A stretch of 64,000 nucleotides of DNA from an uncultured Rivularia sp. (GTDB taxonomy: Bacteria; Cyanobacteriota; Cyanobacteriia; Cyanobacteriales; Nostocaceae). The notes under the pieces are model-generated. The model worked only from the letters and a program-made list of their open reading frames with translations. It was not told the DNA's origin and searched no databases. A program made the position numbers and the translations under genes. Below are positions 2,985 to 59,488 of this stretch, in pieces; positions within the stretch are counted from its first letter, which is position 1, and every line of letters starts with the position of its first letter. Location of the stretch: assembly GCA_963665115.1 (NCBI GenBank), contig OY762007.1:1696001-1760000 (forward strand), in the 5' to 3' direction.

Positions 2985-3031
2985 TTATTTAAATTAATTA
3001 CAGATTGATTTTTATTCGATATTGATGTTAA

Positions 3032-3064
3032 AAGCTTACCAATTTAAACGGTAGGCTTTTTTTT
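3032..3064 (+). terminator. Intrinsic terminator
   Basis: AAGCTTACC/GGTAGGCTT stem followed by a T run. Confidence 0.65.
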
Positions 3065-3156
3065 ATGAGAGCATCCTAAATATTTTAAAATATACAGTCA
3101 ACTCACTGCCACGTTTGTGCTTCCATATTTATACTTACTGCCATCAACTCCTTCCA

Positions 3157-3253
3157 CTAATACAGCTGCGCGGAATTCAAAAGTAAAAAGTCTTTTAGGA
3201 TAAGGATTTTAACTATTAGGAATGGTTGCCAAATTTCTGCCGTACTGTATTAG
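3157..3253. mobile_element. 97-bp MITE-like element
   Basis: Terminal inverted repeat CTAATACAG/CTGTATTAG; internal AAAAGT heptamers; a related end lies at 16096. Confidence 0.55.
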
Positions 3254-3381
3254 GGATGCAACTTGTATTTTCTACACAACGTATTAATCAGGGTTTGAGA
3301 CAATTTTACTGCCATCAACTGCTTCCACCTTACTGTCATCTTCTCGGTAAAGTGACAATTTGTTTAGCTGTTCAGGGACTC

Positions 3382-6300
3382 GTTTCCAACTAATCCGAAT
3401 TAACCCAATCGGTGGGGAAGTAAATTCTTTCTTTAAGGCTGGATTAAAGGAGAGTTTCCAACTAATCCGAATTAACCCAATCGGTGGGGAGTTCTCCAAT
3501 AACATCTAACTGCACTGTATAGTACAGTTTCCAACTAATCCGAATTAACCCAATCGGTGGGGCATACCCAATTAACGGGAATATATTGCCTGAATAAAGT
3601 TTCCAACTAATCCGAATTAACCCAATCGGTGGGGAAACTGTCGCAAGAAATGCTGCTTTTGCTCTTATTGAAAAGTTTCCAACTAATCCGAATTAACCCA
3701 ATCGGTGGGGTTTTGATGGAGACATTGAAATCACTGAAGGATACGAGTGTTTCCAACTAATCCGAATTAACCCAATCGGTGGGGTGGCTAAGTTCAATTC
3801 TATTCGCAGCATCTTTTGTTTCCAACTAATCCGAATTAACCCAATCGGTGGGGTTTTAACATCTAACTAAAAAACAAATTTGCTCGGTTTCCAACTAATC
3901 CGAATTAACCCAATCGGTGGGGAACTTTTTTAACGACAAGAACAACGCTGTTAAGGTTTCCAACTAATCCGAATTAACCCAATCGGTGGGGTATCCCTGC
4001 AAATTTTGTGGGGTGACTACGGACAAAAGTTTCCAACTAATCCGAATTAACCCAATCGGTGGGGTCGTTTCTTAAAGAACGAAAATAATCAAAAGAGAAT
4101 AGTTTCCAACTAATCCGAATTAACCCAATCGGTGGGGATTTCTTAAAAAGAAATCACATACACGCCAATTTATGTTTCCAACTAATCCGAATTAACCCAA
4201 TCGGTGGGGAAGAGAATCATTGAAAAGTTTGAAAATAACGAAAGTTTCCAACTAATCCGAATTAACCCAATCGGTGGGGGAGAATTAATTCTTCCAGCGA
4301 CAGAAATGGAAATGGATCGTTTCCAACTAATCCGAATTAACCCAATCGGTGGGGTAAGAGACAAGAAAGATATAGCGGAAGAAATTAATAAAGTTTCCAA
4401 CTAATCCGAATTAACCCAATCGGTGGGGTGTTCCCAGCAGTTTCAAACCCTAGTCTCTCGTAAAAAGTTTCCAACTAATCCGAATTAACCCAATCGGTGG
4501 GGTAATTTCAATTTTTCTGAGAAGTTAGAATCTGTTAGTTCGTTTCCAACTAATCCGAATTAACCCAATCGGTGGGGGTCGTTCTTCTGTAGGAAGAGGT
4601 ATTCCAGAATATAAAGTTTCCAACTAATCCGAATTAACCCAATCGGTGGGGTCTTTTCAGAAGCCAATAGATGTGATGGAATTCGTAATGTTTCCAACTA
4701 ATCCGAATTAACCCAATCGGTGGGGTGGTGTTCACCGTATGTTTTTAGTAAATAAAGCTAATGTTTCCAACTAATCCGAATTAACCCAATCGGTGGGGTT
4801 TGTTAGAAAAAAGCAGCCACGTGGTTGCTTTAGAGTTTCCAACTAATCCGAATTAACCCAATCGGTGGGGAAATATAATAGCGGTAAAACAGTTCCGAAT
4901 TCTAATGTTTCCAACTAATCCGAATTAACCCAATCGGTGGGGAATATGGTGAAATTTCTTTTACAGAAATTAAAGATAGTTTCCAACTAATCCGAATTAA
5001 CCCAATCGGTGGGGAAAGACAAAAGAGGAAGTCTTAGACTTTCCACCTAACGGTTTCCAACTAATCCGAATTAACCCAATCGGTGGGGGGCTGTTTGAAA
5101 AACAGCATAAGTCGAGGTCAGTTAGAGTTTCCAACTAATCCGAATTAACCCAATCGGTGGGGGGAGTCAGCCACTGAGGCGACTCCGGCAACTATAACGT
5201 TTCCAACTAATCCGAATTAACCCAATCGGTGGGGGCAGCCAGAATCAAAAAGGCAGCAAGTCCGGAGGATAGTTTCCAACTAATCCGAATTAACCCAATC
5301 GGTGGGGTTTTTTTGTTTATCAGTTGCATAGTCTGTATTCATCAGTTTCCAACTAATCCGAATTAACCCAATCGGTGGGGTACAACATTTTGGCAGTATT
5401 TACTACTGCGGCTTTTAGTTTCCAACTAATCCGAATTAACCCAATCGGTGGGGCGAAAGGATAACACGAGTAATATTGTATTATAGGGAAAGTTTCCAAC
5501 TAATCCGAATTAACCCAATCGGTGGGGTAACATTTTCGCTTTTTCCTAACTAGCTAACTTGTTTCCAACTAATCCGAATTAACCCAATCGGTGGGGATCT
5601 GGCGCTCCTGCAAGGACAGGATTAGTCAACATGTTTCCAACTAATCCGAATTAACCCAATCGGTGGGGGCTTTGGTTTTTGCGTCTTTGTTTCTTTCTAT
5701 TTTCGTTTCCAACTAATCCGAATTAACCCAATCGGTGGGGCAGTCAAAATGCGAATTGGAATGCGAACTGGAAAGTTTCCAACTAATCCGAATTAACCCA
5801 ATCGGTGGGAAAAAAATTTGCTAAGTGAATAACGAAAAAAACGAAAACAGTTTCCAACTAATCCGAATTAACCCAATCGGTGGGGGATTGTTTGTTTCAA
5901 TTTTACGAAGGCAAGTACAAGTAAGTTTCCAACTAATCCGAATTAACCCAATCGGTGGGGCACTTATCTTTAAGGATTTGCTAAAATGTCTAACGTTTCC
6001 AACTAATCCGAATTAACCCAATCGGTGGGGAAAAATTTGACGAAGCATTAGAATTAGCAAGAAAGTTTCCAACTAATCCGAATTAACCCAATCGGTGGGG
6101 AAAAAGATTCTGAAAAAGAGGCTCTTGCCTCTTTGAAGTTTCCAACTAATCCGAATTAACCCAATCGGTGGGGCTCACATTTTTCTGTCTTCATTTGATT
6201 AGCTAACGTTTCCAACTAATCCGAATTAACCCAATCGGTGGGGCGGTTTGTATTGATGGAAATTGTGCAGGATTTTAAAGTTTCCAACTAATCCGAATTA

Positions 6301-9300
6301 ACCCAATCGGTGGGGCAGAAGGGGAAAACATTTTCTTCTCTGAAAAAGAGAAAAAGTTTCCAACTAATCCGAATTAACCCAATCGGTGGGGGATCAAAAA
6401 GATTCTGAAAAAGAGGCTCTTGCCTCTTTGAGTTTCCAACTAATCCGAATTAACCCAATCGGTGGGGTTTTTCAATATATTTGTTAAATGCTGGCGGATA
6501 TTTAGGTTTCCAACTAATCCGAATTAACCCAATCGGTGGGGAATTCGTGGAATTGAAGTTTTAAAAAGCTACCGTTTCGTTTCCAACTAATCCGAATTAA
6601 CCCAATCGGTGGGGGTTCCCCGTTGTATTTACAGGAGGATTCACCAAGTTTCCAACTAATCCGAATTAACCCAATCGGTGGGGACAGTATTGAAAAAATC
6701 TCTAAGTCAGATATAAAAGTTTCCAACTAATCCGAATTAACCCAATCGGTGGGGGATAAATGTTTTCAAGATAGGAGGGTATTTCCAACGTTTCCAACTA
6801 ATCCGAATTAACCCAATCGGTGGGGCTGAAGAAAAAAAAGAAGAATGCGAACCTAAGGCACAGTTTCCAACTAATCCGAATTAACCCAATCGGTGGGGCA
6901 ATATTCAAAACATGGGTTTTGGTATTGGACAAAGAAAAAGTTTCCAACTAATCCGAATTAACCCAATCGGTGGGGAAACTGAAGAAGAAGTTGAAACTGA
7001 AGCTGAAGAAGAGTTTCCAACTAATCCGAATTAACCCAATCGGTGGGGCAAGGGGTCGTGATGTTGGCGTGCCTCACACACCTCAAGTTTCCAACTAATC
7101 CGAATTAACCCAATCGGTGGGGATTTCATCTATTTGCTTACTTAAAAGCAATGCATAGTTTCCAACTAATCCGAATTAACCCAATCGGTGGGGATTGGGC
7201 ATGAGAGATAACTGAGAGAACCACCAAGGTTTCCAACTAATCCGAATTAACCCAATCGGTGGGGAAACTTTATCTTTATTTTGGGGAATTCTGCTTTAAA
7301 GTTTCCAACTAATCCGAATTAACCCAATCGGTGGGGTGCAAAACCAGGTCAGCGAGGCTATGAACCTCCCAGTTTCCAACTAATCCGAATTAACCCAATC
7401 GGTGGGGAAAACTAAAAGGGAAGCATATAGTTGGCAGTAAAGTTTCCAACTAATCCGAATTAACCCAATCGGTGGGGAATACGACAATCGTAGGTTTGCA
7501 AACTATGCAGTTTCCAACTAATCCGAATTAACCCAATCGGTGGGGGTGAATTAGAAGCAATGGCTTCCGGTTCATCTGATTTGGTTTCCAACTAATCCGA
7601 ATTAACCCAATCGGTGGGGTCTAATAGTGGAAATGTAAGCATTAGCGGCAATAATAGTTTCCAACTAATCCGAATTAACCCAATCGGTGGGGTAGTGGAA
7701 ACGGAATGAATGTAACGCAAATTAACGTTTCCAACTAATCCGAATTAACCCAATCGGTGGGGCGACGGCTATAGCAGTAAAGTTTCATGGGGTACTTGTG
7801 TTTCCAACTAATCCGAATTAACCCAATCGGTGGGGAAGCACTGAGAACCAGTTCAAAAAGTTTGATACTAATGTTTCCAACTAATCCGAATTAACCCAAT
7901 CGGTGGGGTCCAACAAGATTACATTAATTAACCATGTAACAAAAGTTTCCAACTAATCCGAATTAACCCAATCGGTGGGGTAGATGAAAATAATCTAGCA
8001 CATCTTGCTATAATAATGTTTCCAACTAATCCGAATTAACCCAATCGGTGGGGATGGCACCTTAAGCCTGGTAAATCTGAATATTGGGTGTTTCCAACTA
8101 ATCCGAATTAACCCAATCGGTGGGGTGTTGAACTGGGGAGGTGTGTTGCTGCCAGTAAGGTTTCCAACTAATCCGAATTAACCCAATCGGTGGGGTAGAG
8201 ACGATGTAGTTTATTTTTTAAAGGATTGTTTCCAACTAATCCGAATTAACCCAATCGGTGGGGTTTCCTTTTGGGTAGGTTCTGAAAAGATAACATTCCA
8301 GGTTTCCAACTAATCCGAATTAACCCAATCGGTGGGGATGGGTAAATTAGGACATAGGGAAACCTGTGTTCAAGGTTTCCAACTAATCCGAATTAACCCA
8401 ATCGGTGGGGTGTAAGTAACATTAACTCCTATTAGTTTATTAATGTTTCCAACTAATCCGAATTAACCCAATCGGTGGGGACATGGTTAAAGAAGCTGAC
8501 GGTCGCTGCATGAACGTTTCCAACTAATCCGAATTAACCCAATCGGTGGGGTTGCTCATCATTACGTGAAAAAGTAACGGTGTGATAAGGTTTCCAACTA
8601 ATCCGAATTAACCCAATCGGTGGGGAAAGAGCAAGAGTTACAAGTCATGGTTTATAAGATAAAGTTTCCAACTAATCCGAATTAACCCAATCGGTGGGGG
8701 ATTGAAAGATATAAAGCAAAAAATTGAGTTAGTTGAAAGTTTCCAACTAATCCGAATTAACCCAATCGGTGGGGAAACGGAGCGAAAGTTCCAAAAGTCT
8801 TAGTTACTGGAGTTTCCAACTAATCCGAATTAACCCAATCGGTGGGGGTTCAAAACAGAATTGCGCTTTTTTCTTTGTTTTCGTTTCCAACTAATCCGAA
8901 TTAACCCAATCGGTGGGGAAACAAATTTATCTGAGAGCTACAAACGCATTTGTTTCCAACTAATCCGAATTAACCCAATCGGTGGGGTGGTTTAATTAGT
9001 CTAGCAGTAGCATCCGCACGTAATAGTGTTTCCAACTAATCCGAATTAACCCAATCGGTGGGGAAACAGCCCAAGAGACCTGAAAGACGACCAATAAACG
9101 TTTCCAACTAATCCGAATTAACCCAATCGGTGGGGTTGATGAAAATAAGATGTATAACTGCCAACGGAGTAGTTTCCAACTAATCCGAATTAACCCAATC
9201 GGTGGGGTTTTTATTGCTTCTTTCGTAATTTTCAATCATCAGTTCCGTTTCCAACTAATCCGAATTAACCCAATCGGTGGGGTTATTTTACAGAAAGACG

Positions 9301-9858
9301 GAGTAATCATAATGATTAGTTTCCAACTAATCCGAATTAACCCAATCGGTGGGGGAGAAAACTCTATAATGCTTGCAAAAGCATAATAGGTTTCCAACTA
9401 ATCCGAATTAACCCAATCGGTGGGGAGAGATTATATTTTCAATGGAAAGAAGGTTGGAGAGTTTCCAACTAATCCGAATTAACCCAATCGGTGGGGTTTT
9501 TTATAATAATAAAAACAACTATGGTTGATAAGTTTCCAACTAATCCGAATTAACCCAATCGGTGGGGGGTTCACGCTTCTTCTGCTCGTGCAGAAGAGGG
9601 AAAGTTTCCAACTAATCCGAATTAACCCAATCGGTGGGGCGTCTCTACGCAAATTGGTGTGTAAAATTCTTTAAGTTTCCAACTAATCCGAATTAACCCA
9701 ATCGGTGGGGGTCGCTTCTGTTTTGACTATTGCTCAGGTGAATATTGAAGTTTCCAACTAATCCGAATTAACCCAATCGGTGGGGTGCTAAGTTTTTCTA
9801 TGAAAGCTTAGAAAGCATTAAAGTTTCCAACTAATCCGAATTAACCCAATCGGTGGGG
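3382..9858 (-). CRISPR. CRISPR array, about 90 repeats and 89 spacers (manual count); 36-nt repeat CCCCACCGATTGGGTTAATTCGGATTAGTTGGAAAC; type III-like
   Basis: Near-identical 36-nt repeats with 32-41 nt spacers; the GAAAC 3' end and the leader next to cas2 give minus-strand orientation. Confidence 0.99.
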
Positions 9859-10077
9859 AGTTCGTTCAGCAGCCCCTACCCAGTAAGAGTTTCAGCCGCC
9901 AAATCGACACACTCCTGAAAAACAGTATGTATCTCGCGCAAAACTGAACAAAACACAAGCCTCAAACCCTTGCCCTGCAAGCCATCGACACACTCCAACG
10001 AAAGAATAGGCATTTGAGCGATTTGGCGGAGTGTGTCGATTTTCATGTTACCTTTTTCTCCGTAGTGGGGCTAAAAC
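9859..10077 (-). promoter_or_regulatory. CRISPR leader
   Basis: Non-coding stretch between cas2 and the first repeat; ATCGACACACTCC at 9903 and 9984, inverted copy at 10028-10040. Confidence 0.8.
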
Positions 10078-10359
10078 CTATATGACATAATAGTTTGGTG
10101 GCTCTTGAGGATGTTCGCTACCAATAGTTAACACTCTGGAAACAGCATCTTCAGAAATCCAATAAAATCGCACGTTATCCTCAGATGGCTTGACAATTTT
10201 TTTCGATTTCTCAAAAAGTTGTCGCATTTCATCTAAATTTAAAAAGCATTCAAATACAGAAAATTGTACTCTTTGCCCGTAACCCTCTAAAAAGTTAGAT
10301 AATTTAGTGCGTCTTTTATCATTAGGAATATCATATACAACAACCACTAACATCTTCAA
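10078..10359 (-). CDS. cas2: CRISPR-associated endoribonuclease Cas2
   Basis: VVVYDIPNDKRR and GQRVQFSVFEC motifs. Confidence 0.97.
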   Translation of the reverse strand: MKMLVVVVYDIPNDKRRTKLSNFLEGYGQRVQFSVFECFLNLDEMRQLFEKSKKIVKPSEDNVRFYWISEDAVSRVLTIGSEHPQEPPNYYVI

Positions 10360-10400
10360 TACTAAGAATTAATTTGTTACTTAAGTATAAGATGCTTTAC

Positions 10401-10449
10401 AAGTAATAAGTAAGAAGTAAAAAGTAAAAAGTAAGAAGTAAAAAGTAAT
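10401..10449. repeat. (AAGTAAD)7 heptamer tract, left arm of cassette 1
   Basis: Seen directly; complementary to 10892-11036. Confidence 0.9.
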
Positions 10450-10456
10450 AAATTGG

Positions 10457-10828
10457 TTATTTTTGTTTAAGTTTATTAATCGAAGATACTAATACCTTAA
10501 TAATTTCTTCATTTTCTTGTATCATATTGTTGAATTTGGATTTCAGCACTAATTCTGATTTAATCATTATTTTTATCCAATAAAGAGTCTCATTAGCTTC
10601 TTTCAAGGCTATAGAATACTTGTTGATAAAATCTGCGTTTGATTGAGCATACTTAGCTTCCGAACAGTTTGCTCCTATTGATGTTCCACTTCTTAAAAAT
10701 TGCTTAGATAATACCTTACCCGCATCGTCAAAAGGTCTTTTATTTAGTTCGCAATAAGCTTTGATAACTCTGATAGCAAAATTTTCTGTTCTTTCTTGAA
10801 TACTAATATTACCCTTATGATTAACCAT
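10457..10828 (-). CDS. Four-helix bundle protein (23S rRNA IVP / TIGR02436 family)
   Basis: QFLRSGTSIGANCSEA and DFINKYSIALKEANETLYW motifs. Confidence 0.92.
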   Translation of the reverse strand: MVNHKGNISIQERTENFAIRVIKAYCELNKRPFDDAGKVLSKQFLRSGTSIGANCSEAKYAQSNADFINKYSIALKEANETLYWIKIMIKSELVLKSKFNNMIQENEEIIKVLVSSINKLKQK

Positions 10829-10891
10829 GAATCAAAAATAATGCGACAACTTGTTATTAATCGAAAAACAATAAATAACGTATCAAGTATA

Positions 10892-11036
10892 ACTTCTTAC
10901 TTCTTACTTCTTACTTCTTACTCATTACTTCTTACTTCTTACTTCTTACTTCTTACTTCTTACTTCTTACTCATTACTTCTTACTTCTTACTTCTTACTT
11001 CTTACTCATTACTTCTTACTTCTTACTTCTTACTTC
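10892..11036. repeat. (CTTACTT) x ~20 heptamer tract, right arm of cassette 1
   Basis: Seen directly; abuts the cas1 stop codon. Confidence 0.95.
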
Positions 11037-12159
11037 AGTCTGCTCTTAGGTAAGATTCATAGATAATATCAGATAATAAACAGCGCTTATATCTCCTAAC
11101 TTGTAATTGAATTGCATGTCGATATGTTACTTGAGAAATTAAATCTGGATGAGAAATTTCTTCATTCATGCGATTTTCAAACTGTTTCAGAAAAACTCTT
11201 CTAGCAGTTTGACTTAAATAAACTCCTCCTGTGGTTGCGACGACATCAAAGTCTTTCGGTTTAAATTCACTATTATTAATTACTTTTAAAACCAAACTAT
11301 CAACAATAGGAGAACGAAATTCTTCCATTAAATCAAAAGCTAAATATGTTTTTTGCTTATCACCATAATGAAAATGACCGATATATGGTGAAAGTCCTTC
11401 GGTAATAATAAAGCTGAGTACATTATTAAATAAAAGTGTATAGCCAAAACTCAATAATGAATTTATCTCATCGGTGGGAGGCTGCCGAAATCTCTGAGAA
11501 AAACTAAATTTAGGATTAGTAATTAAATTCCCAAAGGCTGGAAAATATCTAGCAGCAGCAATTCCTTCATAACCGCGCAAAGTATCTAAGTTATCAACAT
11601 AATTCAAAGCATCAATATCTTGATTAATTCCATAGATAGCTTCTTCTACTTTTCCTATTTTGCGTCTGCGATTAAATCGCATCAATAATTGTTTGGAATT
11701 CAATAATTTACCTAAAACAACCGCTCTTGATACGCTAAATCGAAATAAATCATCATTACGTCTTTCTACTTGAACTAATTGATTATCCAGATGAATAGAT
11801 TTTTCGCTCCATAAGTGACCATGATATGTACCAGTTTGACTGAGAAATACCACGGGAATTTGTTCTTTTAAACAAGCTTGAATTACTGGAGTTGATAATT
11901 GAATATTACCGAATACTATAATTTGCTCTACTTCCCGAATCGGAACTTCAAGCTTCGGTTTTTCTGAGACATGAATAATAAACCGCTGATAATCTTTATA
12001 GATATTTGTTCCTTGTTCAATTAAGTATATAGCCGCCATTTCTTGATTCCAAATATTTTTTTGAAAAGGACTATCATCCTCTGCTGTTTGTGGAGGTTTT
12101 TCCGTGATTGTTTCGGCAAAATATGGTTTGTGTAGATAACGTATATTTTCATAACCCAA
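11035..12159 (-). CDS. cas1: CRISPR-associated endonuclease Cas1 (core starts at Met 12039; frame open up to 12249)
   Basis: LRGYEGIAAARYF, NSLLSFGYTLL and LAFDLMEEFRSPIVD motifs. Confidence 0.97.
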   Translation of the reverse strand: MGYENIRYLHKPYFAETITEKPPQTAEDDSPFQKNIWNQEMAAIYLIEQGTNIYKDYQRFIIHVSEKPKLEVPIREVEQIIVFGNIQLSTPVIQACLKEQIPVVFLSQTGTYHGHLWSEKSIHLDNQLVQVERRNDDLFRFSVSRAVVLGKLLNSKQLLMRFNRRRKIGKVEEAIYGINQDIDALNYVDNLDTLRGYEGIAAARYFPAFGNLITNPKFSFSQRFRQPPTDEINSLLSFGYTLLFNNVLSFIITEGLSPYIGHFHYGDKQKTYLAFDLMEEFRSPIVDSLVLKVINNSEFKPKDFDVVATTGGVYLSQTARRVFLKQFENRMNEEISHPDLISQVTYRHAIQLQVRRYKRCLLSDIIYESYLRAD

Positions 12160-12203
12160 ACCAGCAAAACCGTTAGTTATTGAATTAGAAGCTTCAGCTA
12201 ATT

Positions 12204-13166
12204 CTAAACTGCTTTCTTCTTTCGATATTGGTTGCGATAGACTTTTTTTTTACTAGTTTTTCTAGTTCTCGTTTTCTCGCGATTGTTTTCAATAGCTGAC
12301 CTTAATTTAGCTTTATTTGTATCTACAGGGAAAATTGCATCTTCTAAAAAACCATGACCTAAAAAACGAAAACCGCGTTCAAAGCTAGTAATTTGGGTTT
12401 TCTCGGTATTTATTTCTAACCCCATCGAATCCAATAAATCAATCACTTGCGATTTTGCGATCGCGATTCGTTCTTGACTAGTTGATAAAACCAAAAAATC
12501 ATCAGCATAACGCACGATTTCTAAATCACTAGCGCTAATAATTCCATCAAATTCATGGAGATAAATATTTGCCAAAATTGGAGAAATAACCGCACCTTGA
12601 GGAATACCTTTTTGAGGTAAGATTAGCCCTTCTCTAGTTTCCACACCAACCGAAATCCAAGCTTTAATTAAACATAAAATACCTGGGTGGTCAATATGTA
12701 ACCTTACCTGTTGTAACAAGCGATGATGGTCAATATTATCAAAAAACTTGACGATATCAGCATCCAAAACCCAGACATAACCCATGTCTCGCCAATCGGC
12801 TATTTTCTCTACCGCATTGATATAAGATAAATTAGGACGATAAGCAAAACTTACAGGTGAAAATTTCTCTTCCATTAACGGACTAATTACATTTAATAGA
12901 GCTTGCTGAACAATTCTGTCTCGAATAGTAGGAATTTTTAACTCTCTTTGGGAGCCATTTCTTTTGGGAATAATTACCTGCTTGCAAGGAGAAGGTTGAT
13001 AGCTACCATCAGCAACAGAATTCATTAACTGATAAATGTTAACCGTTTGATTGCTAGCAAAACTACTAATAGTTTCACCATCAACACCCGCACAACCGCG
13101 TTTATCAGCAACCTTTTCCCAAGCACGCTGAAAATTATTAATATCGATAAATAGACTGGAAATCAT
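12204..13166 (-). CDS. CRISPR-associated group II intron-like reverse transcriptase
   Basis: AGVDG, RELKIPTIRDRIVQ, DADIVKFFD, GIPQGAVISP, RYADD and FLG motifs; directly upstream of cas1. Confidence 0.96.
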   Translation of the reverse strand: MISSLFIDINNFQRAWEKVADKRGCAGVDGETISSFASNQTVNIYQLMNSVADGSYQPSPCKQVIIPKRNGSQRELKIPTIRDRIVQQALLNVISPLMEEKFSPVSFAYRPNLSYINAVEKIADWRDMGYVWVLDADIVKFFDNIDHHRLLQQVRLHIDHPGILCLIKAWISVGVETREGLILPQKGIPQGAVISPILANIYLHEFDGIISASDLEIVRYADDFLVLSTSQERIAIAKSQVIDLLDSMGLEINTEKTQITSFERGFRFLGHGFLEDAIFPVDTNKAKLRSAIENNREKTRTRKTSKKKVYRNQYRKKKAV

Positions 13167-13167
13167 G

Positions 13168-13220
13168 ATAAGTAAGAAGTAAGAAGTAAAAAGTAAGAAG
13201 TCAAAAGTAAGAAGTAATAA
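13168..13220. repeat. (AAGTAAG)n heptamer tract directly upstream of the RT start codon
   Basis: Seen directly. Confidence 0.9.
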
Positions 13221-17326: not shown

Positions 17327-20300
17327 TTAGTTTTCTACCGCACCTAATGCTTTGAGCGTAGAGATTTCGGCTTCGGTTAAGCCTTTGACACCTGTGATGT
17401 TCATGCGTTCGTAAGGGCGATCGCTCTTTAGTGTTTTTAGACATTCGCCAGTTTTAATGTCCCAAAGTTTTGTAGTTTCATCCATGCTATAACTACCAAG
17501 AGTTTTACCATCAGGACTAAATGTAACTGACCTTACCGAATTGGTATGCCCTTCTAGAGTATGAACACATTTTCCGTTATTAATATCCCAAAGCCTTGCG
17601 GTTAAGTCGCGGCTCCCACTAGCAAGCGTATTACCATCGGGACTAAATGCAATTGTATGTACGCGATCCAAGTGACCCCTCAAAAGTATGGACACATTTA
17701 CCAGTTGCAATATTCCATAGCTTTATAGTTTCGTCATCACTCCCACTAGCAAGCGTGCTGCCATCTGGACTAAATGCTAATGAGCATATTTCATTAATAT
17801 GTCCTTCTAAAGTTTTAATCAGTTTTCCAAGACTAACATCCCATAACTTTATAATTAGGTCATAACCTGCACAGGCAAGAATTTTACTATCTGGACTAAA
17901 AGTAACTGAATTAACCCAGTCTGTATCTCCCTGCAAGGTATGAACACATTCTCCTGTCAAAACATTCCACAGCTTTACTACTGCATCATGATCTCCACTC
18001 GCAAGAATTTTACCATCTGGACTAAATGCTAATGAATTTATCCAATTCGTGTCTGAATGCAAAGTATGCACACATTTTCCAGTACTAAGATGCCAGAGTT
18101 TTATTGTTGAATCATAATCCCCACTCGCAAGAATTTTACCATCTGCACTGAAAGCAACTGCTCTTACCACACTACTGTGCCCTTCATAAGTATGAACACA
18201 TTCTCTGTTAGCAATATTCCATAATCTTACAGTTGGCTCACCACTACCACTAACAAACTTCTTAAAATCTGGACTAAAGGCAATGGCTCTTACTAAATTA
18301 GTATGTCTTTGCAAAGTATATAGGCATTTTTTTGTAGAAACATCCCATAACTTTATAATTTGGTTATAACCAGCACTAGCAAATATCTTGCCATCTGGAC
18401 TAAAAGCAACGGCATTCACCGAACTGGTATGTCCTTCTAAAATATGTAAGCATTTTCCAGTAGTATCCCAAAACCTTACTGTTTGGTCATCACTTCCACT
18501 AGCAATTATCTTGCAATCTGGGCTAAAAGCTACTGAATCTATTCGATGAGTATGTCCTTGTAAAGTACAAACACATTCTCCGGTTGCAATATCCCACAAC
18601 TTTACAGTTTTATCAAAACTACCACTGGCAACTATCTTGTTATTAGAACTGAAAACAACTGAAGTTACTTTGTGAGTATGTCCTTTGAAAGTCTTAAGTA
18701 ATTTTTTAGTTGCAATATCCCATAATTTTACAGTTTTATCTCTACTACCACTAGCAATTATCTTGCCATCTGGGCTGAAAGTAACCGAGCATATCCTTAA
18801 CTCGTGCCCTTGCAAAGTTTGTAGACATTTTCCTGTTATGATATTGTTCCAAAATTTTAAAGTATTATCCGCACCGCAACTTGCGATTATTCTGCCATCT
18901 GGGCTAAAAGCGACGGAACTCACCCAATGAAAATGACCTTCTAAAATATAAACACATTCTCCAGTCACAATATTCCATAACCGGATAGTGCGATCTCCAC
19001 TGCAACTAGCAAGCATTTTGCCATCTGGGCTAAAAGCTAATGCATTTATCCAATGAGTATGTCCTCTACAAATTAAGATTTGTCTCCCATTGGCAGTGTC
19101 CCACAAACGAACCATATTGCTACTATCACCTGTAGCTAATAATTTACTGTCCGGACTAAATTCTACTGCTGTAACATCACCTAAATTACTAGTAAAAATG
19201 CAGTCAGCCAAATTCGCCTTTGCAAAATCAACACCGCTCAAACTCGCATCACTAAAATCCGCTCCTTTAACCACAGCAGCCGATAAATCCTTCCCTTCCA
19301 AACTTTCATTATCAAACTTCACTGCCAAAGTAGTTGCATTCCCGCCAATATAATCAACCTCCGCTTCGCTCTTACCCTTAGTCTCTTCAATTACCTTAAC
19401 CAGCGCTTCATTATCCCCCACCATTCCCAACATCAGATCCATCACCGCTAAAGTAAGTGGCGATCGCCCAAAATTTCCCCTCAATTTCTCCAAAGATTCT
19501 TTAGTAAATCCCTTTAATGGAGCAATCGCAATACAATTTCCCGAATTATCTAACTGTCGCTCAAAATAACCAGACCAAGTATAATCAACGGGTACAGCAG
19601 CCACATCCAAACAAGATTGTGAAGAAGCTAATTCCGTAAAATCATCAGCTAAAGCTCCCAACTCAGCCGCAAATTTATACGCTACAAAAAATTCCAATAA
19701 CGAACGATGAGCCGGAGTATAATCTCCATTAGCATTACGAATCAGCATCGTTTGCCCCATCATATCGTAATGCCAATGATCCAAGTCATTTTGTTCTTGC
19801 ACCATAGAACCAAATAAGCGCCGAATCCTATCGGGAAACAACTTATAGTTAATGCTCATTTGGTCGCTCGAAAGCATTTCCCAAGATAGTTCGCACAAGA
19901 AATACAGCTTATCTGCCAAGGAAGTAAATGTGCGTTCGGCTTTGATATCCCGCTCCATCTTTCGTCGCACTGCATACAAATAAACCCGCGACATATCCAC
20001 AGGTTTACCCGCTTCAATATCTGGTAATGCTTCTAAAATTAAATCGGTCATTACCGGACGACGAGCCAAGTCCAACAATTGCGGATTGCCCATCACTTGG
20101 TCAACCGTTGCGGCTTCCGCTTGATGTAACAATACTTGTCTTATTTGCTCGTCGTTGAATTTCTCCAATTCCAACACTTCAAACTGGGGTGTTTCTCCGG
20201 TTAAGTTTTTAGTAGAAGCTTGTAACTCTGCGTTCAGTAAAGCCCGTCCTTCTTGAGCTTCGGGAAAATGTTCCGTGCGACAAGTTAAAATCACCTTGGC

Positions 20301-21792
20301 ACCCGGAACCACAACCTTAGCCAGTTCCCAGAAATTATTAATCATCTGCTGACGGTCAACTTTTGCAGCCATTTCGTCAAAACCGTCAAAAATTAGCAGC
20401 AGCTTACCCATGCGGTTCAACTGGTCGAAGACATCGCTATTTATGCGGATATTATGCTGAGTAAAAAAGAACCCAGCCAAAACATTTTCTACATTCAAAG
20501 CTTTAGCAAAATCCCGCAATGTAATTACTACAGGTAAACGGGGACGCTCTAAACCTCTTTTTTGAGCATCTTTGTAGCGCTGTAATGCAGTCCAAGCATA
20601 GTGAAAAGCAAACCAGGTTTTACCAGTACCGAATTCACCCAATATAGAAATATGCTCCTTTGCGGGGGTCATCCAACCATAAATCAATATAGCCATCAAT
20701 CCAACCGTCTTCTTCTTCATAACGGCTTACACCTATGCGTCGTTTAGTAACTGGGTCAAGTTCTTCCTTAGTACAGGCTAAAGGTACATACTTAGTATCA
20801 ACCTTTCGGCGTTTAATTTCCGCTTCCAACCAATTAACATAACCGCTAAAATCAGCATCAAGGTCAATCAGTTCGTCAAAAGTATAGCAATCAAGAAAAC
20901 GGTTTTCTTCCTTCTTAACCTCATCCCGCGCTGCTCTAGAAATTCGACGAGTAGTTACCAACCAACCTTCATCAGTTTTTTGTTCCTGCACCGAAGAACG
21001 CAAAGCCATAACATCGCTAAGTCCGATTTCTCCAGCAATTCCACGTACTAAGATGCGGTCAAAACTACGTCTTACAGGAATGTTAATGATAAATTCAAAA
21101 TACTCTTCTGCCCAAACTTCATGATTTTCAAAGCTATAACCTAAAGTTTCAAACCAACCGCGCATTTGTTGAGCTAATGCTATGGCTCTGCATTGATTTT
21201 CAGACGTTACCTGTAACGTCTCTACATTCTTGTCGGGTAATGCTGGATAATTCTGTGCTGCTAATCGTGCAATTTCTGTACGAATACCTTCTAAAGTCGG
21301 CATTCTATCAAGCTGCTCTTGAATATTTTTGATACTTGTATGTAAAGAACCAATTTGCTGGCTCATCATCGTATCTGCTGGGTTGCGGGTAAGTCTAACG
21401 ACTTGCGAAAACACGATGTAAAACGCTGCAATTTCCCGCTTGATATCAACTCTCAAACTTTTGATTTCATCACCCAAAGCATAAGCATCGACAAAAGCAT
21501 CTACCTCAGACAGCAATATTGAAGGGTTATTGTGGTCAAATGCTTTGCGAAACGCTGCTTTAATTTCTTGTTGACGAAACAACTCAAGAATGGGCTGTGG
21601 CTTACCAACACCATATTCTACAAGAGTATAAGCATATACCCCGCTAAAATCTCCCGGTGGATGCTCTGGGTCAATTTTAAACTGCTTAAGTAATTTAATT
21701 ACAGTTTCATTACGCTGAACCTTTTCTTTAATCACAGGTTGAGCGATGCCACTAATTGCTTTAAACAGCAAATCCAGATTAATTAGGCTCAT
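17327..21792 (-). pseudogene. NACHT NTPase + pentapeptide + WD40-repeat protein (~1490 aa), split by two +1 frameshifts (real or assembly error)
   Basis: GEFGTGKT Walker A, LIFDGFDEM Walker B, many GH...WD repeats; extra base in homopolymer runs at 20664-20668 and 17676-17679. Confidence 0.88.
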
Positions 21793-23230
21793 GGAAAGAG
21801 ATTGCGGTAAACAAAGGGTGTTGTAACTGTCAGCAGTTATTACCATTAAAAATTATACACCGCAATATCTTGGTCTAACTTTATACTTTTTCAATGATTT
21901 ATTTAAGTGGATATAGAAATAAAACATACACCTTGAAATAATAGTACGCAATTACTAAATTGTTGACAATAATTACTTCCGAAATCGCAAAGATTTAGTA
22001 TAATATTTGCGCCATCTTCCAAAAAGCAATGTAAGCGCGCATATCAAGTTAACCCACAACAAATAAACGCTACTCCCAACTCCGAATCAATCATGGGAGT
22101 GGTTGAACGCTTGACCTATCACTCCGAAGAGTCGGGTTATACGGTAGCGCGGTTACAGCGTCCAAGGGTATCGGAATTAACTACCATTACGGGCAGCTTT
22201 GCAGGTATTCAGCCCGGACAAACGCTTCAACTTAATGGTTTCTGGCGCGAACATCCCTGCGGACGGTTTGCAATTTCAAGTTACCAACTACAAGGAAACT
22301 AAACCAGCAACAATCACGGGAATCGAAAAGTATTTAGGTAGCGGATTAATTAAAGGAGTTGGTCCGGTAACAGCAAAACGTATCGTTGCTCATTTCGGTA
22401 CAGAAACTCTCGATATTATTGACAATCAAATCGAGCGATTGCAAGAAGTGAATGGCATTGCGAAGAAACGTATTGCCATGATTCAGAAAGCTTGGAAGGA
22501 GCAACGAGCCATAAAAGAAGTGATGGTATTTCTTCAAAGTCATGGTGTCTCAACAACCTACGCGGTGAAGATTTACAAACATTACGGTGATTTGGCAATC
22601 AATAAAGTTAACGAAAATCCTTACCAGCTAGCAACCGATATTTATGGAATTGGGTTTCTCACTGCTGATAAAATTGCTCGTAATTTGGGGGTTCCTCCAG
22701 ATTCGGAATTTAGATATAAAGCTGGTATTATCCACGTTTTAAGCGAAGCAGCAGATTCAGGACATTGTTATTTACCGCAACCGGAGTTAATACAACAGCT
22801 TTGTGAAAAACTAAAAACTGACGAACATCAACCACAAGAGGATGGATTAACAAAAGTCATCAGCGATATGTCTCTCAGCGATGAATTAATTAGAGAACGT
22901 GATGCTGATAAAGTATTACTCTGCTACAAACCAACCTTCTTCCATACCGAACAAAACCTAGCGCAACTTATACTTTCTCGTTTGCATCAAACGATAAATA
23001 CAGATATACCTCGCGTTCATAATTGGTTGGAGCGTTTTAGCCAAAGCCGTAAAGTTTCATTATCAACGGAACAGCTACAAGCAGTTGAAACCGCAGCTTA
23101 CTCAAAAATCATGGTAATCACTGGTGGTCCCGGTGTCGGTAAAACGTTTTGTACCCGGACTATTGTTTCATTATGGAAAGCGATGGGTAAATCAATCGCT
23201 CTAGCTGCACCAACTGGACGAGCTGCACAG

Positions 23231-23719
23231 AATAATTCGTAATTCGTAATTCGTAATTCGTAATTAATTAAGATTACATTTAAAAACTGAATATGAGATA
23301 ATTATTAATAGTTAATTGACATTATAAAGATGATTCATAATATTAGTATAACTGACAGAACTAAAAAGTTTGCAGTTAGAATTATAAAAGCTTGTTGCTT
23401 CCTAGATGAAAAACCAGGAGTTAATCGAATAATATCAAGCCAATTACTTCGTTCTGGAACATCTATTGGTGCTAATGTTCGAGAAGCACAATCGGCACAG
23501 TCTGATAAAGATTTTCTTAGTAAACTAGAAATCGCATTGAAAGAAGCAAGGGAAACTCAGTACTGGTTGGAAATTATAATTGAATCTGAGTTAGTAGAGA
23601 AATCTAAGTTTGATTCTTTACTTCAAGAAGCTAATGAAATTGGCAAGATATTAGTTTCTTCTACTAAAAAACTTAAACAGAAATAATTACGAATTACGAA
23701 TTACGAATTACGAATTATT
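23231..23719. mobile_element. Four-helix-bundle cassette with perfect 36-bp inverted heptamer arms
   Basis: AATAATT(CGTAATT)4A at 23231-23266 and its exact reverse complement at 23684-23719. Confidence 0.8.
23330..23686 (+). CDS. Four-helix bundle protein (23S rRNA IVP family)
   Basis: QLLRSGTSIGANVREAQ and DFLSKLEIALKEARETQYW motifs. Confidence 0.93.
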   Translation: MIHNISITDRTKKFAVRIIKACCFLDEKPGVNRIISSQLLRSGTSIGANVREAQSAQSDKDFLSKLEIALKEARETQYWLEIIIESELVEKSKFDSLLQEANEIGKILVSSTKKLKQK

Positions 23720-24234
23720 TTGGTATGCTTGATTTATTTTTGGCATATTCATTATTTGAAGCGGTAGCGGATGATACGCAACTTCTCCTTGTTGGGGATA
23801 TAGATCAGCTGCCGTCAGTCGGTGCTGGTAACGTTTTGGCAGATTTAATTCATTCGGGTAAAGTTCCGGTAGTACGGCTCACCCAAGTCTTTCGTCAAGC
23901 TGCAAGTAGTAAAATTATTACCGCATCTCACCAAATAAATCGCGGACAATATCCTTTGATTGAAACAATTTCCGATACCCCCGAATCGGATTGTTTGTGG
24001 CATGGAGGAGGTTTTCAGCCGGAGCATGGGGTACAAGCAATTAGCGAGTTAATCACAGATTTAATTCCCAGACTTGGTTTTAATCCTGTGACTGATGTAC
24101 AAGTACTCGCACCAATGACGAGAGGTTTGGTTGGTACGCGCAATCTTAACAACGTACTGCAAAAACTCATTAATCCTCCTAGTCCCCAGAAGATAGAAGT
24201 AACAAGGGGTGGGATAATTTTTCGAGTTGGCGAT

Positions 24235-24262
24235 ACACCCGGAGGGTGTCGGCTTCGCCTAT
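24235..24262. mobile_element. 28-nt double-hairpin insertion into a HIP1 site (SDR5-like)
   Basis: GCGAT|ACACCCGGAGGGTGTCGGCTTCGCCTAT|CGC; removal restores GCGATCGC and the reading V-G-D-R-V-I-Q. Confidence 0.8.
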
Positions 24263-24757
24263 CGCGTTATTCAATTAACTAACGATTACCACCGGGAAGT
24301 TTTTAATGGGGATATGGGTTTTATTATTCATATTGACACTGAGGAACAGGAAGTTATCGTAAAATTTCAAGAACGTGATGTGATTTACGATTATGCCGAT
24401 TTAAACGAACTGGCCGTCTTCTTGGAGCGTTAGCATTCACAAATCCCAGGGTTCGGAATATCCGGTTGTATTTTTGCCACTATACTCGCAACATTTCGTA
24501 ATGTTGAGCAGGAATTTATTGTATACCGGCTTAACTCGTGCAAAGAAGTTAGCGATTATTATTGGTAGTAAGAAAGCGATAGGTATGTGCGTTCGTTCTA
24601 GAAAATCTCAGGAGCGATATACGCAGTTGAAGGAAAGGTTGATGAAAGTTTCTTGTATTCTAAATTAATTAACTAAAAGCTTTATTACAAAATTAAGATA
24701 ATAGGTTTTTAGACGTTAGATAATATCTACGACGGATATTTAAAGGAGATATTTAAC

Positions 24758-44703: not shown

Positions 44704-47028
44704 CTACAGGTTTATTCCCAACAACTGTAATATTCCCCTTATTGGTTCTTTTTGTGCCTCCAACATCTGCACCTGGGATAATAACCTTTTTGGAATATAA
44801 GTACTTTTAGAAATTGTTTTTTCACCACTTTTTAGCTGCCAGTCGTACCACGGTTGCTGGTACTGTTTACCATTTTTCTTAGTAATAGTCCTCCAGTGTA
44901 TTCTACCTGTGCCTTCGCCGTAACTTCTTCGAGTAGTACTACCGGTTCGCTCAACAGGTAGCACTGGTGATGAGTTTTTCTCCAACTGAGTACTACCGGT
45001 TCGCTCAACAGGTAGTACCGATGATGAGTGTTGCTCCGACTGAGTACTACCGGTTCGCTCAACAGGTAGTACCGATGGTGAGTATTCCTCTAACTGAGTA
45101 CTACCTGTTCCAACAGGTAGTACTGATGGTGAGTTTTCCTCTAACTGAGTACTACCGGTTCCAACAGGTAGTACTGGTGGTGAGTGTTCCTCCGACTGAG
45201 TACTACCGGTTCGCTCAACAGGTAGTACCAATGGTGAGCGTTCCTTTAACTGAGTACTACCGGTTCGCTCAACAGGTAGTACCAATGGTGAGCGTTCCTT
45301 TAACTGAGTACTACCGGTTCGCTCAACAGGTAGTACCAATGGTGAGCGTTCCTCCAACTGAGTACTACCGGTTCGCTCAACAGGTAGTACCGATGATGAG
45401 TTTTCCTCCGAGTGAGTACTACCGGTTCGCTCAACAGGTAGTACTGATGATGAGTTTTCCTCCGAGTGAGTACTACCGGTTCCAACAGGTAGTACTGGTG
45501 GTGAGTGTTCCTCTGAGTGAGTACTACCGGTTCCAACAGGTAGTACTGGTGGTGAGTGTTCCTCTGAGTGAGTACTACCGGTTCCAACAGGTAGTACTGT
45601 ATCCTGGGTAGAAACATTTTTGTTAACCCACATAGATGCTGGTGGATAAACCACACCATAAGGGTCAAACACTTCCTTAAACCTTTCCCAATTTTCACCC
45701 CAGTAAACCAGACAGTGCGATTGCCGAGCTGATAATTTTGGCTTGTAACTCGTATCAAGAAATTTAATCCGACCAGTCCAAAAACAAACGGGTTGAGATT
45801 TCAGTAGTGGAGATAGCCACTTAGTATCCGTAGCAGCAGGAACTAGTGCGATAGCTTCCGTTACCCTTCCCGATTCAAATTCAGCTTGCAACTTTTTTAT
45901 CCACACACTTGGCGCAGAGTAGGGAGGATTCATAAATATACGTCCGTTCCACTCTTGAATTAAACCGTCATCAAGAACTGTGTAGTGCTGCGCTGCTCTT
46001 ATGTGCTTACCTTCATCCGCGCAAGGGTCAAGAGTAATTTGTCCAAGCACCTGAGTAACAAGATCAGACATATGAGGTGGAGTGTACCATTCGTCTGATG
46101 ATAATGATTTATTGCTAAGAGATCCCTGTCCCCTACTCCCTGCATTAGATTTTAAATAATCTTCTGATGGAATAGGAGTAGTTGTTTCCTGAGTCTTTAT
46201 TAATTCTGCTATTTCAGGATTAGATGGGAGAGTATCAACAGAAATATTGAATAGTCCTTGCTTACCCTTAACAGCAAACGGTTCTGTTATTGGTTGAATA
46301 TTTTCCAACTTCCATGCATAACGTCCAACTTCCCAATCACCACTCTTTATTTCTGTTTCTGATTGCTGGGTAATAAGCGAGGGTGTTATAGGGATGCAAT
46401 CTACTAAATCGCAAACGGCGATCGCCTTCCCACATGGAAAATTAATTTCGTTCCAATCTGGTAATTCGACGCTACTGCAAATCTTCCAATACTGTTGATA
46501 TTGCTTTTTAGTAAGTTTGGCTGTGGAGCAAATTAATAGCTTACCTCTATAATTGGTTTTCCAGCTTCTAGTCTCATACTGTTTTATACCCAAAGCAATC
46601 AATGAGCAATAAGGCTGCCATAAACTGATTGCTTTCAAGGAATGATTAAATAATCTAAGGCCAGATTCTTGCTCCCGTTGAATCGAGCTTCGAGGAGTTG
46701 GGGTTAATTCTTCTGTATCTGCTGATTTGACCGTTATAGATTCAGAAAATTTTGAATCAGATTGCTCAAATAAACTTTTGTTTTGAGGAGCTACAGTTTC
46801 GTCTTCCTCTCCCAAAACTTTGTTTTGCTCGATTTTGGGAAGACTGTGACCGTCTGGTTCATCCCAAGCAGGGTCATAAAAAACTTTATCCCAGTCGCGT
46901 TGAGTGCCTTGTTTTTCAAAGTCCTGATATAATTCAATGTCAAAAAGAGTTGTCATTTTGATATCTTCCTTACGGATGAATCCTCTACCAACTAGGAGCA
47001 AACACACTTGATTCTTAAATAGAAGCAA
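44704..47028 (-). CDS. ASCH domain + N6-adenine DNA methyltransferase (phage Dam-like) + repeat linker + C-terminal domain
   Basis: ISLWQPY..GIKQYETRSW (ASCH); DEWYTP, LDPCA and FMNPPYS (MTase). Confidence 0.88.
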   Translation of the reverse strand: MLLFKNQVCLLLVGRGFIRKEDIKMTTLFDIELYQDFEKQGTQRDWDKVFYDPAWDEPDGHSLPKIEQNKVLGEEDETVAPQNKSLFEQSDSKFSESITVKSADTEELTPTPRSSIQREQESGLRLFNHSLKAISLWQPYCSLIALGIKQYETRSWKTNYRGKLLICSTAKLTKKQYQQYWKICSSVELPDWNEINFPCGKAIAVCDLVDCIPITPSLITQQSETEIKSGDWEVGRYAWKLENIQPITEPFAVKGKQGLFNISVDTLPSNPEIAELIKTQETTTPIPSEDYLKSNAGSRGQGSLSNKSLSSDEWYTPPHMSDLVTQVLGQITLDPCADEGKHIRAAQHYTVLDDGLIQEWNGRIFMNPPYSAPSVWIKKLQAEFESGRVTEAIALVPAATDTKWLSPLLKSQPVCFWTGRIKFLDTSYKPKLSARQSHCLVYWGENWERFKEVFDPYGVVYPPASMWVNKNVSTQDTVLPVGTGSTHSEEHSPPVLPVGTGSTHSEEHSPPVLPVGTGSTHSEENSSSVLPVERTGSTHSEENSSSVLPVERTGSTQLEERSPLVLPVERTGSTQLKERSPLVLPVERTGSTQLKERSPLVLPVERTGSTQSEEHSPPVLPVGTGSTQLEENSPSVLPVGTGSTQLEEYSPSVLPVERTGSTQSEQHSSSVLPVERTGSTQLEKNSSPVLPVERTGSTTRRSYGEGTGRIHWRTITKKNGKQYQQPWYDWQLKSGEKTISKSTYIPKRLLSQVQMLEAQKEPIRGILQLLGINL
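44934..45598. repeat. 13 tandem 51/54-bp coding repeats, each with a hairpin
   Basis: GTACTACC-GGTT(CGCT/C)CAACA-GGTAGTAC core encoding VLPV(G/ER)TGST. Confidence 0.95.
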
Positions 47029-58353: not shown

Positions 58354-59488
58354 ACCCAGTCACAATAGAAGATAATCCCAAACTCGCAATACTTGAAAAA
58401 CTCCTTAAAACTGCCATACCTCCACCTACAGCTAATACAACAGATAAAATCGGAGCAAGAATACCAATTGCAAATGCAAAAATCATCGGGTCATTATTAT
58501 CGGCATTCATAACTAACGTCGCAACTAAACCAGAAATGATATTGAAACTAAGTTTTACCATTCCTACCGAGAAGAAGCCCGTTAACCAAGCGAAAATAGC
58601 TTTATTTCCTACAGGTAATAATGAGCCTCCGACAGCAAGAGGTCCTAGTAATGCACTCAGTAACATAGAAACTTCTATAATCCATTGGAAGGCAATACTA
58701 AAAGCTAATAACAATCCTCTTACTGTTAATTGAAAAATATTAGTGTTGAAAAAATCATTGATACCTTCAAGAAAATTGGAATCGTTATTATCAATTTGAG
58801 ATTCGATTTGTTGCGCTTGTTTCTGGGCATTTTCCAAGCATTCCGTTTGTTGAGTCGGGTCAGCGATGGCGTTACATTGAGTAATTAATGTTCTTATTGC
58901 TTCTGATTTACCATTTTTGAGCATGACTCTTTGATAGGCTTCTTGCAACTGAATGGAAGCAGATGTAGTCGAGAGTAATGTTTGATTTGTTTGATTGATG
59001 ATAGCTCTAAGTCCAAGAGTCGCTTCGGATAAAAGTTTGGCGTTATTAGTCAGCAAAACTATTACAACTAACGGCCAGATGATTTCTGAGAAAGCTTTGC
59101 TGTTGTCACCATCTACCATCTCTCTCGTCCACTGCACCATGAAAATCAACAAAGTTCCGACAGCAAAGAAAATTCCAAGATTGGCGATCGCACTATACAA
59201 TCCCCCACCAAGTACGTCATCCCACAGCTTGTCCACTGACTGAGCAACAGCTTCACTCGCGGCAATTCCATCTTCTGTAATGGTAGAAGCTGCTTGCCCA
59301 GGATTTGGATTGTTAGCGAAGGCAGGAGGCAGGAGGCAGAGGGCAGGAGGTAGAAATAGGAAGGAAGAAGGTAGTAAAATCAATGAATCCTTCAAACTTC
59401 TGCCTTCAAACTCATGAGTTATAGAGAACAATTTATTTGGAAACGCGGTATTCAGTTGGCAATTAACTGTTATCGGTTGACTGAACAT
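58340..59488 (-). CDS. VirB6-like polytopic membrane protein (start uncertain; TTG at 59383 plausible)
   Basis: Several transmembrane segments; LLGPLAVGGSLLP and FAWLTGF motifs. Confidence 0.7.
   Translation of the reverse strand: MFSQPITVNCQLNTAFPNKLFSITHEFEGRSLKDSLILLPSSFLFLPPALCLLPPAFANNPNPGQAASTITEDGIAASEAVAQSVDKLWDDVLGGGLYSAIANLGIFFAVGTLLIFMVQWTREMVDGDNSKAFSEIIWPLVVIVLLTNNAKLLSEATLGLRAIINQTNQTLLSTTSASIQLQEAYQRVMLKNGKSEAIRTLITQCNAIADPTQQTECLENAQKQAQQIESQIDNNDSNFLEGINDFFNTNIFQLTVRGLLLAFSIAFQWIIEVSMLLSALLGPLAVGGSLLPVGNKAIFAWLTGFFSVGMVKLSFNIISGLVATLVMNADNNDPMIFAFAIGILAPILSVVLAVGGGMAVLRSFSSIASLGLSSIVTGFVKK

Follow-up and report, generated by a model that had tools for sequence, protein, structure and literature searches.

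The window analysed here, a 64,000-nucleotide stretch of genome G000, is an integrated conjugative element of a filamentous cyanobacterium and encodes ArdA, a Mob_Pre relaxase and TraG/VirD4-type and TrbI-type proteins. Its recD2 gene is split by a small cassette, and the features at this locus, all on the forward strand, are the following.

22029..23229, +, recD2 5′ remnant, a pseudogene with codons 1-399, ending APTGRAAQ (TIGR01448, Pfam HHH_RecD2/AAA_30, alignment and reads)
23230..23722, +, whole cassette, 493 bp, in place of 134 bp of recD2
23231..23266, +, left arm, a TAATTCG heptamer array
23330..23686, +, gene for a 118-aa four-helix-bundle protein (PF05635 23S_rRNA_IVP, TIGR02436), under purifying selection
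23684..23719, +, right arm, a CGAATTA array, the exact reverse complement of the left arm
23723..24668, +, recD2 3′ remnant from the second base of codon 443, with an ATG at 23725 (MLDLFLAY)

An initial annotation, made from the window alone, had held that the cassette replaces coding sequence and had proposed alignment to intact recD2 from relatives. That alignment defined the junctions and confirmed the replacement: the last matched base is 23229 and homology is found again at 23723, and therefore 493 bp stand for 134 bp, with no target duplication. The missing stretch is CDS nt 1197-1330, codons R400-S443; these 44 codons, which include TIHRLL and the Walker B DE motif, agree with the 40-50 residues previously estimated to be absent. 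The identical span was given by all 10 intact reference alleles aligned, and in 7 of the 7 alleles displayed the gap segment reads RLGEMTGLEAKTIHRLLEFDPK...IIVDEAS with small variants. In a profile search the recD2 halves cover TIGR01448 positions 55-373 and 419-586. GC content is 28% in the cassette and 42% in recD2. The arms, 417 nt apart, are the perfect 36-bp inverted repeat that had been described. The earlier placement of APTGRAAQ up to the left arm and of the MLDLFLAY ATG 5 nt after the right arm also stands, but the true edges lie 3 and 5 nt beyond the heptamers: the cassette extends past the outermost full heptamers by GAA and TTTTG, and homology therefore restarts 2 nt upstream of the ATG. 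A proposed search for the cassette and the missing segment elsewhere in the genome found neither in G000; the lost 134 bp had no match elsewhere in its 8.69 Mb (best blastn E 0.82, tblastn E 0.38), no recD2 sequence of at least 22 nt turned up outside the gene, CRISPR array included, and hence no sign of CRISPR targeting of recD2, and the recD2-site cassette occurs once.

Both remnants carry further damage. The 5′ remnant has small lesions near 22036 and 22255, confirmed by reads, and the 3′ remnant has frameshifts and a 28-bp insertion. This hairpin-rich insertion (24235-24262) interrupts a GCGATCGC (HIP1) site within recD2, where it has duplicated AT, is single-copy in the genome, and presumably resembles the small dispersed repeats of cyanobacteria.

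Joints were examined at read level in 4 of 20 listed runs. Contigs from X1, which may be the source sample itself, have 0 differences from the window across both junctions, at a single-copy depth of ~230. We reject the possibility that the split gene is an assembly chimera or that the segment is naturally absent, for which we see practically no chance. Short-read contigs do break at the arms and none spans the whole cassette, yet the same layout occurs in four other assemblies, including the independent complete genome G019; moreover, one separate run (X8) reproduces a recD2-cassette joint, shifted by 40 bp, and another (X10) contains a cassette interior as well as the intact 134 bp. Empty alleles and the cassette occur together in biofilm samples such as X4 and X10. 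Natural absence is contradicted by the intact orthologs, all of which carry the segment.

The cassette gene and its arms

The sole ORF of the cassette is a member of PF05635/TIGR02436. Its predicted model (pLDDT 93.6) best matches the fold of BT_0352 (2RLD), followed by Xcc0516 (2GSC), and profile, sequence and structure searches returned no nuclease match. There is a weak fold match to the diversity-generating retroelement (DGR) protein Avd (4DWL; TM 0.74-0.81, 15% identity, E 0.17), and sequence search returned no match to Avd. All 10 pairwise comparisons among the copies described below show 5-20 synonymous versus 1-2 non-synonymous differences, and the gene is under purifying selection; L093, which has an internal stop, was excluded from the protein alignment. 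PF05635 proteins are widespread and, to our knowledge, have been assigned no function since their discovery in rRNA intervening sequences; we likewise know of no established route by which rRNA intervening sequences enter a gene.

The arms are predicted to pair as single-stranded DNA (z -6.7; 0 of 100 shuffles fold as well), in a stem that reaches a few pairs past the perfect 36-bp repeat. Paired inverted heptamer arms flank 91 of the 110 cyanobacterial-type PF05635 loci with sufficient flank (114 examined, some genomes counted twice) and 41 of 71 other PF05635 loci (82 examined), against a background of 13 of 1177 G000 ORFs of 100-140 aa, 6 of those 13 being family members by sequence. The cassette ORF has a 10-13 nt word in common with the deleted segment, D-R-T being encoded there in each; the word lies at no joint, and we discarded it as chance by a rough estimate.

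Two more cassettes lie in the window. The second four-helix-bundle cassette (about 10370-11035, AAGTAAG arms) lies between cas1 and cas2 and replaces most of a 91-98 bp spacer; relatives have at this site the spacer, another cassette or gene-less heptamer remnants. The third (about 59310-59835, GGCAGGA-type arms) is antisense in the transfer operon. There it has displaced ~65 bp, among them what looks like the start of the next gene downstream, and the reading frame of that gene is now open through the arm; at the corresponding site G017 has a heptamer hairpin that contains no gene. The window also holds a CRISPR array with cas2 and cas1 (about 3000-13200; 90 copies of a 24-mer counted), a reverse transcriptase (RT) gene just upstream of cas1 (12207-13166), a NACHT/WD40 gene (NNH5, inactive restriction endonuclease domain; 17643-21846, two overlapping frames near 20640-20720), and a gene that joins an ASCH domain to a Dam-type methyltransferase domain (44707-46956).

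Cassettes in other recD2 alleles and at other sites

Plasmid/ICE-type recD2 of this kind is common on cyanobacterial plasmids. Of 389 family genomes, 208 gave a match, mostly at full length among the top matches listed, and several genomes have two copies. Its alleles are mosaic patchworks, and in the genus the gene is often broken by other means. In L021, L022, L025 and L026 it is split by 4-7 kb elements with trios of integrase-like (tyrosine-recombinase) genes, inserted at CDS nt about 335, 1415 and 2079 with overlaps of 5-9 bp; the left cassette joint of G004 coincides with the site at nt ~335. There are cassette-free deletion alleles as well (G000:C1:4266324-4267074, here G000b, and L014 and L015). 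The deletions of G024 and of G018/G000b differ at their left ends (514 and 1061) and have right ends within ~3 nt (1730-1732), possibly a hotspot or the footprint of a lost cassette. As a control, both of the two pairs of cassette-free deletion alleles that share joints lie in near-identical surroundings (98% and 96%); these pairs (n = 2) reflect plain descent.

Cassettes 95-96% identical to that of the window are found in 4 of 27 genomes of the genus, G000 itself being one and G019, G004 and G011 the others, and in the metagenome contig L154. The latter was found by a protein scan and one of its arms differs by one base; an exact 29-nt pattern scan of the metagenome contigs gave 0 matches. 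In a draw of 201 family genomes there was no copy above 79% besides G000. All five near-identical cassettes lie inside recD2, a gene of 2.2 kb, and none lies elsewhere in the 27 genomes. In G000, G019, G004, G011 and L154, respectively, the left joints are at CDS nt 1196, 1156, 334, 70 and 734 and the right joints at 1331, 1331, about 1890, about 1606 and 1633. The five copies thus have five different left and four different right junctions, the exact right junction of G000 being shared by G019, and the losses range from 134 bp to about 1.55 kb. Every joint lies 3-6 nt outside the outermost heptamer with microhomology of 0-3 nt, and TTTTG is kept at the right end in all five copies. The stretch at CDS about 1197-1265 is missing wherever recD2 has lost sequence to a cassette; the sole other large loss in these remnants is the 5′ end of G019 recD2. 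The left joints of G000 and L154 have ACA in common, and those of G004 and G011 contain a few unexplained bases.

A second cassette lineage, of genus g40, has 82% protein and 75% DNA identity to the first and CAATTCG arms, and it lies inverted in recD2. In L048 it stands between about codons 78 and 499, and in L056 between codons about 268 and 422, codon ~422 being read by eye; the joints are 3-5 nt from the arms, and the right joint of L056 is placed by a 15-nt match, beyond which lies a large unrelated ORF. A single clade for the two recD2 cassette lineages was neither supported nor rejected (p 0.055). If the 15-nt match is real, G000 is ruled out as the universal smallest ancestor.

The remnants of G000 and G019 have 107 synonymous and 18 non-synonymous codon differences over 643 codons, and the intact pair G007b/G017 has 155 and 26, the same ratio; the cassette genes of G000 and G019 differ by 10 synonymous codon differences. 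At equal neutral rates, remnants that had been dead since the cassettes split would be expected to show ~197 amino-acid changes (111 + 87). In the 30 codons to the right of the shared joint 0 changes were seen where 9 were expected, and at +28 bp from that joint G000 and G019 each match different intact alleles. By these counts, the broken halves diverged as working genes and were functional until recently. A single clade of occupied alleles was rejected on the left side (AU p 3.7e-05; 3 of 14 rows occupied) and on the right side (AU p 0.00105; 4 of 15 rows occupied), in trees that omitted rows of <150 nt and retained G004b as a long outgroup; since recD2 alleles are mosaic, these tree tests are weakened, and ordinary recombination could move the cassette without drive. 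The cassettes of G004 and L154 sit in recD2 alleles of the G008/G012/G020/G023 type. An I636-H637 patch, present in G000, G019 and L154 and missing from the 10 intact reference alleles, hints at some shared flank ancestry of the occupied alleles, although it also occurs in the cassette-free broken allele of G018 and in the second G000 remnant.

A second site with empty alleles for comparison (three were used) lies on Nostoc plasmids, where an ASCH gene is followed by a cytosine methyltransferase gene; plasmid NC_003276.1 of Nostoc/Anabaena PCC 7120 also carries this gene pair, with no cassette listed. In 10 alleles, 328 bp of the methyltransferase gene have given way to a related cassette, the left joint being displaced outward by 6 bp in two of them and by 13 bp in one. 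L100, L094 and L273 have identical 400-bp cassette interiors and left flanks that are alike at 494-518 of 574 positions (86-90%). In its left flank L100 differs from the empty allele L274 at one position (573 of 574 identical), and the two agree at a diagnostic site 52 bp from the joint at which all other occupied alleles differ. Right flanks at this site are closer (92-97%) than left flanks, and in other alleles the joints are unchanged and the cassette gene has 34-39 synonymous differences. In 4 further alleles, which have no methyltransferase after ASCH, related cassettes replace 230 bp of the ASCH gene. These cassettes nest within the methyltransferase-site clade (node 95/98), that is, within the clade of a site further downstream, and their shift therefore did not come from outward deletion alone; the cassette acquired new joints within the gene that the two kinds of allele share.

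Across the collection, cassette lineage tracks site, with 14 changes for 14 groups against a minimum of 13 and a shuffled mean of 45, a signal inflated by kinship. Joints that vary while anchored at the arms were seen in two further groups (L102/L108 and L088/L090), and comparison of L098 with L099 gave no clean empty site. In L099, additional heptamer arrays (4136-4628) lie 1.7 kb from a cassette, where L098 carries its own. One lineage lies antisense beside the start of dndE in the phosphorothioation operon of ~10 genomes (L035, L037, L041, L051, L076-L084, L114), and group B cassettes nest in this dndE clade. Cassettes antisense to the host gene or operon are found in L048 and L056, in the dndE group and at 59.4 kb of the window. 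Pfam identified few flank fragments around cassettes.

How the cassette may spread

Replacement without duplication, joints 3-6 nt outside the arrays and the fidelity of each lineage to one gene or neighbourhood define the behaviour of the cassette, and to within a few tens of bases of the joint its flanks belong to recipient alleles that were intact until recently. That the cassette moves, as the initial annotation had concluded, is borne out. The same annotation had called the event a recent integration with target deletion, unlike DDE transposition. The target is indeed lost, nothing is duplicated and there is no transposase, and the loss and the recent inactivation of recD2 hold; free-standing integration at a random site does not, because G000 has one copy, all five near-identical copies are in recD2 and G019 shares the right junction. 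More likely, the window allele got its cassette by copying from an occupied recD2 allele; the 134-bp loss may have been made at cassette entry or inherited from the donor allele.

The reading of these patterns that we favour, though we consider it about equally apt to be right or wrong, is a homing-like process in which related conjugative elements carry the same gene, an occupied allele is copied into an empty one, and new joints form at the base of the hairpin. As a sequence pattern, the alleles look as they would after allele-to-allele spread with a short co-conversion tract. Two related plasmids or ICEs would meet in one cell, and a break or gap in the empty allele, of conjectural origin, would be repaired on the occupied one. 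Where true homology was used, the donor junction would be retained with a short tract. Where conjugation or repair exposes single-stranded DNA, the arms could pair, and 0-3 nt of microhomology might let the growing strand enter or leave at the foot of the stem, creating a new junction and a different loss. Conceivably, a nascent strand that had copied both arms could fold back and re-prime at the stem base, and the four-helix-bundle protein might bind the arms and promote copying. Several points weigh against homing-like copying: it is read from sequence patterns, no break source was identified and the protein has no nuclease match, the I636-H637 patch hints at common flank ancestry, the alleles are mosaic, recD2 is often disrupted in other ways in the genus, the two recD2 cassette lineages are neither supported nor rejected as one clade, the right flanks at the methyltransferase site are more alike than the left, and the control comprises two pairs.

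A stronger form, which we hold only tentatively and lean against, is that of a selfish element without transposase, nuclease or RT, whose protein and heptamer hairpin home by overwriting alleles and re-cut the boundaries at the stem base. Were this true, dispensable plasmid genes would be killed and eroded, and in operons selection would keep only joints that spare stop and start codons.

We regard it as rather unlikely, though a serious contender, that the cassette is a passive marker, its rare, old insertions having their flanks refreshed by ordinary recombination and extended by deletions from the hairpin ends, with no drive and a protein that benefits the host or the element. The patchwork recD2 alleles, the core in which all losses overlap, the I636-H637 patch and the left joints of G000 and L154, which could be related by a 3-nt microhomology deletion at ACA, would all suit this account. 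Deletions only grow, however, yet L056 resumes inside the stretch missing from G000 (by the 15-nt match only), and the ASCH-site cassettes derive from a site further downstream. Nor is there decay in the junction-proximal codons (0 changes in 30 codons, 9 expected), and the cassette-free deletions (two pairs) do not spread in the same manner.

Independent non-homologous capture, in which breaks are patched with a free cassette and recD2 recurs as a break-prone gene or one whose loss is favoured, strikes us as improbable. In its favour, tyrosine-recombinase trios have entered the gene at three sites and plain deletions also affect it, the left joints of G004 and G011 contain unexplained bases, and lineages do jump to unrelated sites, as group B did within the dndE clade. 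Against capture, five of five copies lie in one 2.2-kb gene with none elsewhere in 27 genomes, and diverged alleles have identical junctions (G000/G019, and the methyltransferase right joint) with at most 1-3 nt of microhomology.

Copying could also run through RNA: a read-through transcript would be reverse-transcribed by a host RT helped by the Avd-like protein, and the cDNA would replace the target through short homologies, as in a DGR. Such a route is compatible with the replacement, the short tracts and the gene fidelity; the predicted fold is similar to that of Avd (E 0.17), and the window has an RT gene (12207-13166). We nevertheless consider retrohoming improbable, as the cassette has no RT of its own, four-helix bundles match loosely, several cassettes are antisense to the host gene or operon, and the RT gene of the window adjoins cas1.

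Likeness to known elements

In behaviour the cassette is like a homing element and in build like an rRNA intervening sequence with an ORF, and it fits none of the compared families fully. The literature searched, whose coverage leaves out most subscription papers and bioRxiv supplements, yielded no description of this cassette outside rRNA. According to PMC4990558, rRNA intervening sequences have a terminal stem and an S23p ORF without assigned function, are excised by RNase III and replace the small tetraloop of a helix, and those in the 23S genes of Coxiella and Leptospira are 428-444 nt long with a 28-bp stem and low GC, sporadic and horizontally moved. By that account the likeness extends to the PF05635 ORF inside a terminal stem (36 bp here, 28 bp there), the similar size and the low GC (PMC4990558). 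The Coxiella ORF is described there as decaying (PMC4990558), whereas the cassette ORF is under purifying selection. Unlike an rRNA intervening sequence, the cassette sits in protein-coding host genes, removes 134 bp to about 1.55 kb and kills the gene, as with the lost Walker B of recD2; its joints shift, and its arms are built of heptamers.

Homing endonuclease elements, inteins and group I introns invade empty alleles of a gene from occupied ones with short co-conversion, and helicase genes of mobile DNA are frequent hosts. The cassette differs from all of them in having no nuclease domain, splicing or fixed site, and in destroying its host gene with the loss of part of the host sequence. 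In homology-facilitated illegitimate recombination, a RecA-dependent homology anchor on one side is combined with a microhomology joint on the other and recipient DNA is lost. The joint pattern of G000 and G019 would fit an anchor plus microhomology; there, however, the joint falls anywhere in the foreign DNA, whereas the cassette joint is always 3-6 nt outside an arm. DDE insertion sequences have terminal inverted repeats, and the adjacent deletions they mediate begin at the element end. The cassette resembles them in both its terminal repeats and its deletions starting at the ends, but it has no transposase or target duplication, its ends vary by a few bases, and there are no copies at unrelated sites of the same genome (one copy in G000). 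No Y1 HUH transposase ORF of the IS200/IS605 or REP/RAYT kind lies within the cassette.

In DGRs the RT is partnered by Avd, a positively charged pentamer, and copying replaces target sequence (PMC6182149). The copying proposed for the cassette would likewise replace its target, and the weak Avd match may point to a related four-helix fold. Unlike a DGR, the 493-bp cassette has no RT, template or variable repeats or adenine mutagenesis; it moves itself and rewrites no variable repeat. The tandem heptamer repeats of cyanobacteria are termed STRR. PMC4679880 describes tandem 7-mers, often just before start codons, that are horizontally spread with 'no mechanism evident'; the arms of the cassette are likewise tandem 7-mers, and that paper does not mention the four-helix-bundle gene.

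Intergenic cassettes leave poor footprints, and cassettes in conserved coding genes show the exact loss, the ends and the flank carried along. If the selfish-homing reading is right, the process would also have given rise, as by-products, to rRNA intervening sequences and to the surplus of 7-base repeats in bacteria. If the protein does drive copying, the cassette would represent a new route by which selfish DNA homes and by which backbone genes of plasmids, such as those for helicases and methyltransferases, are knocked out.
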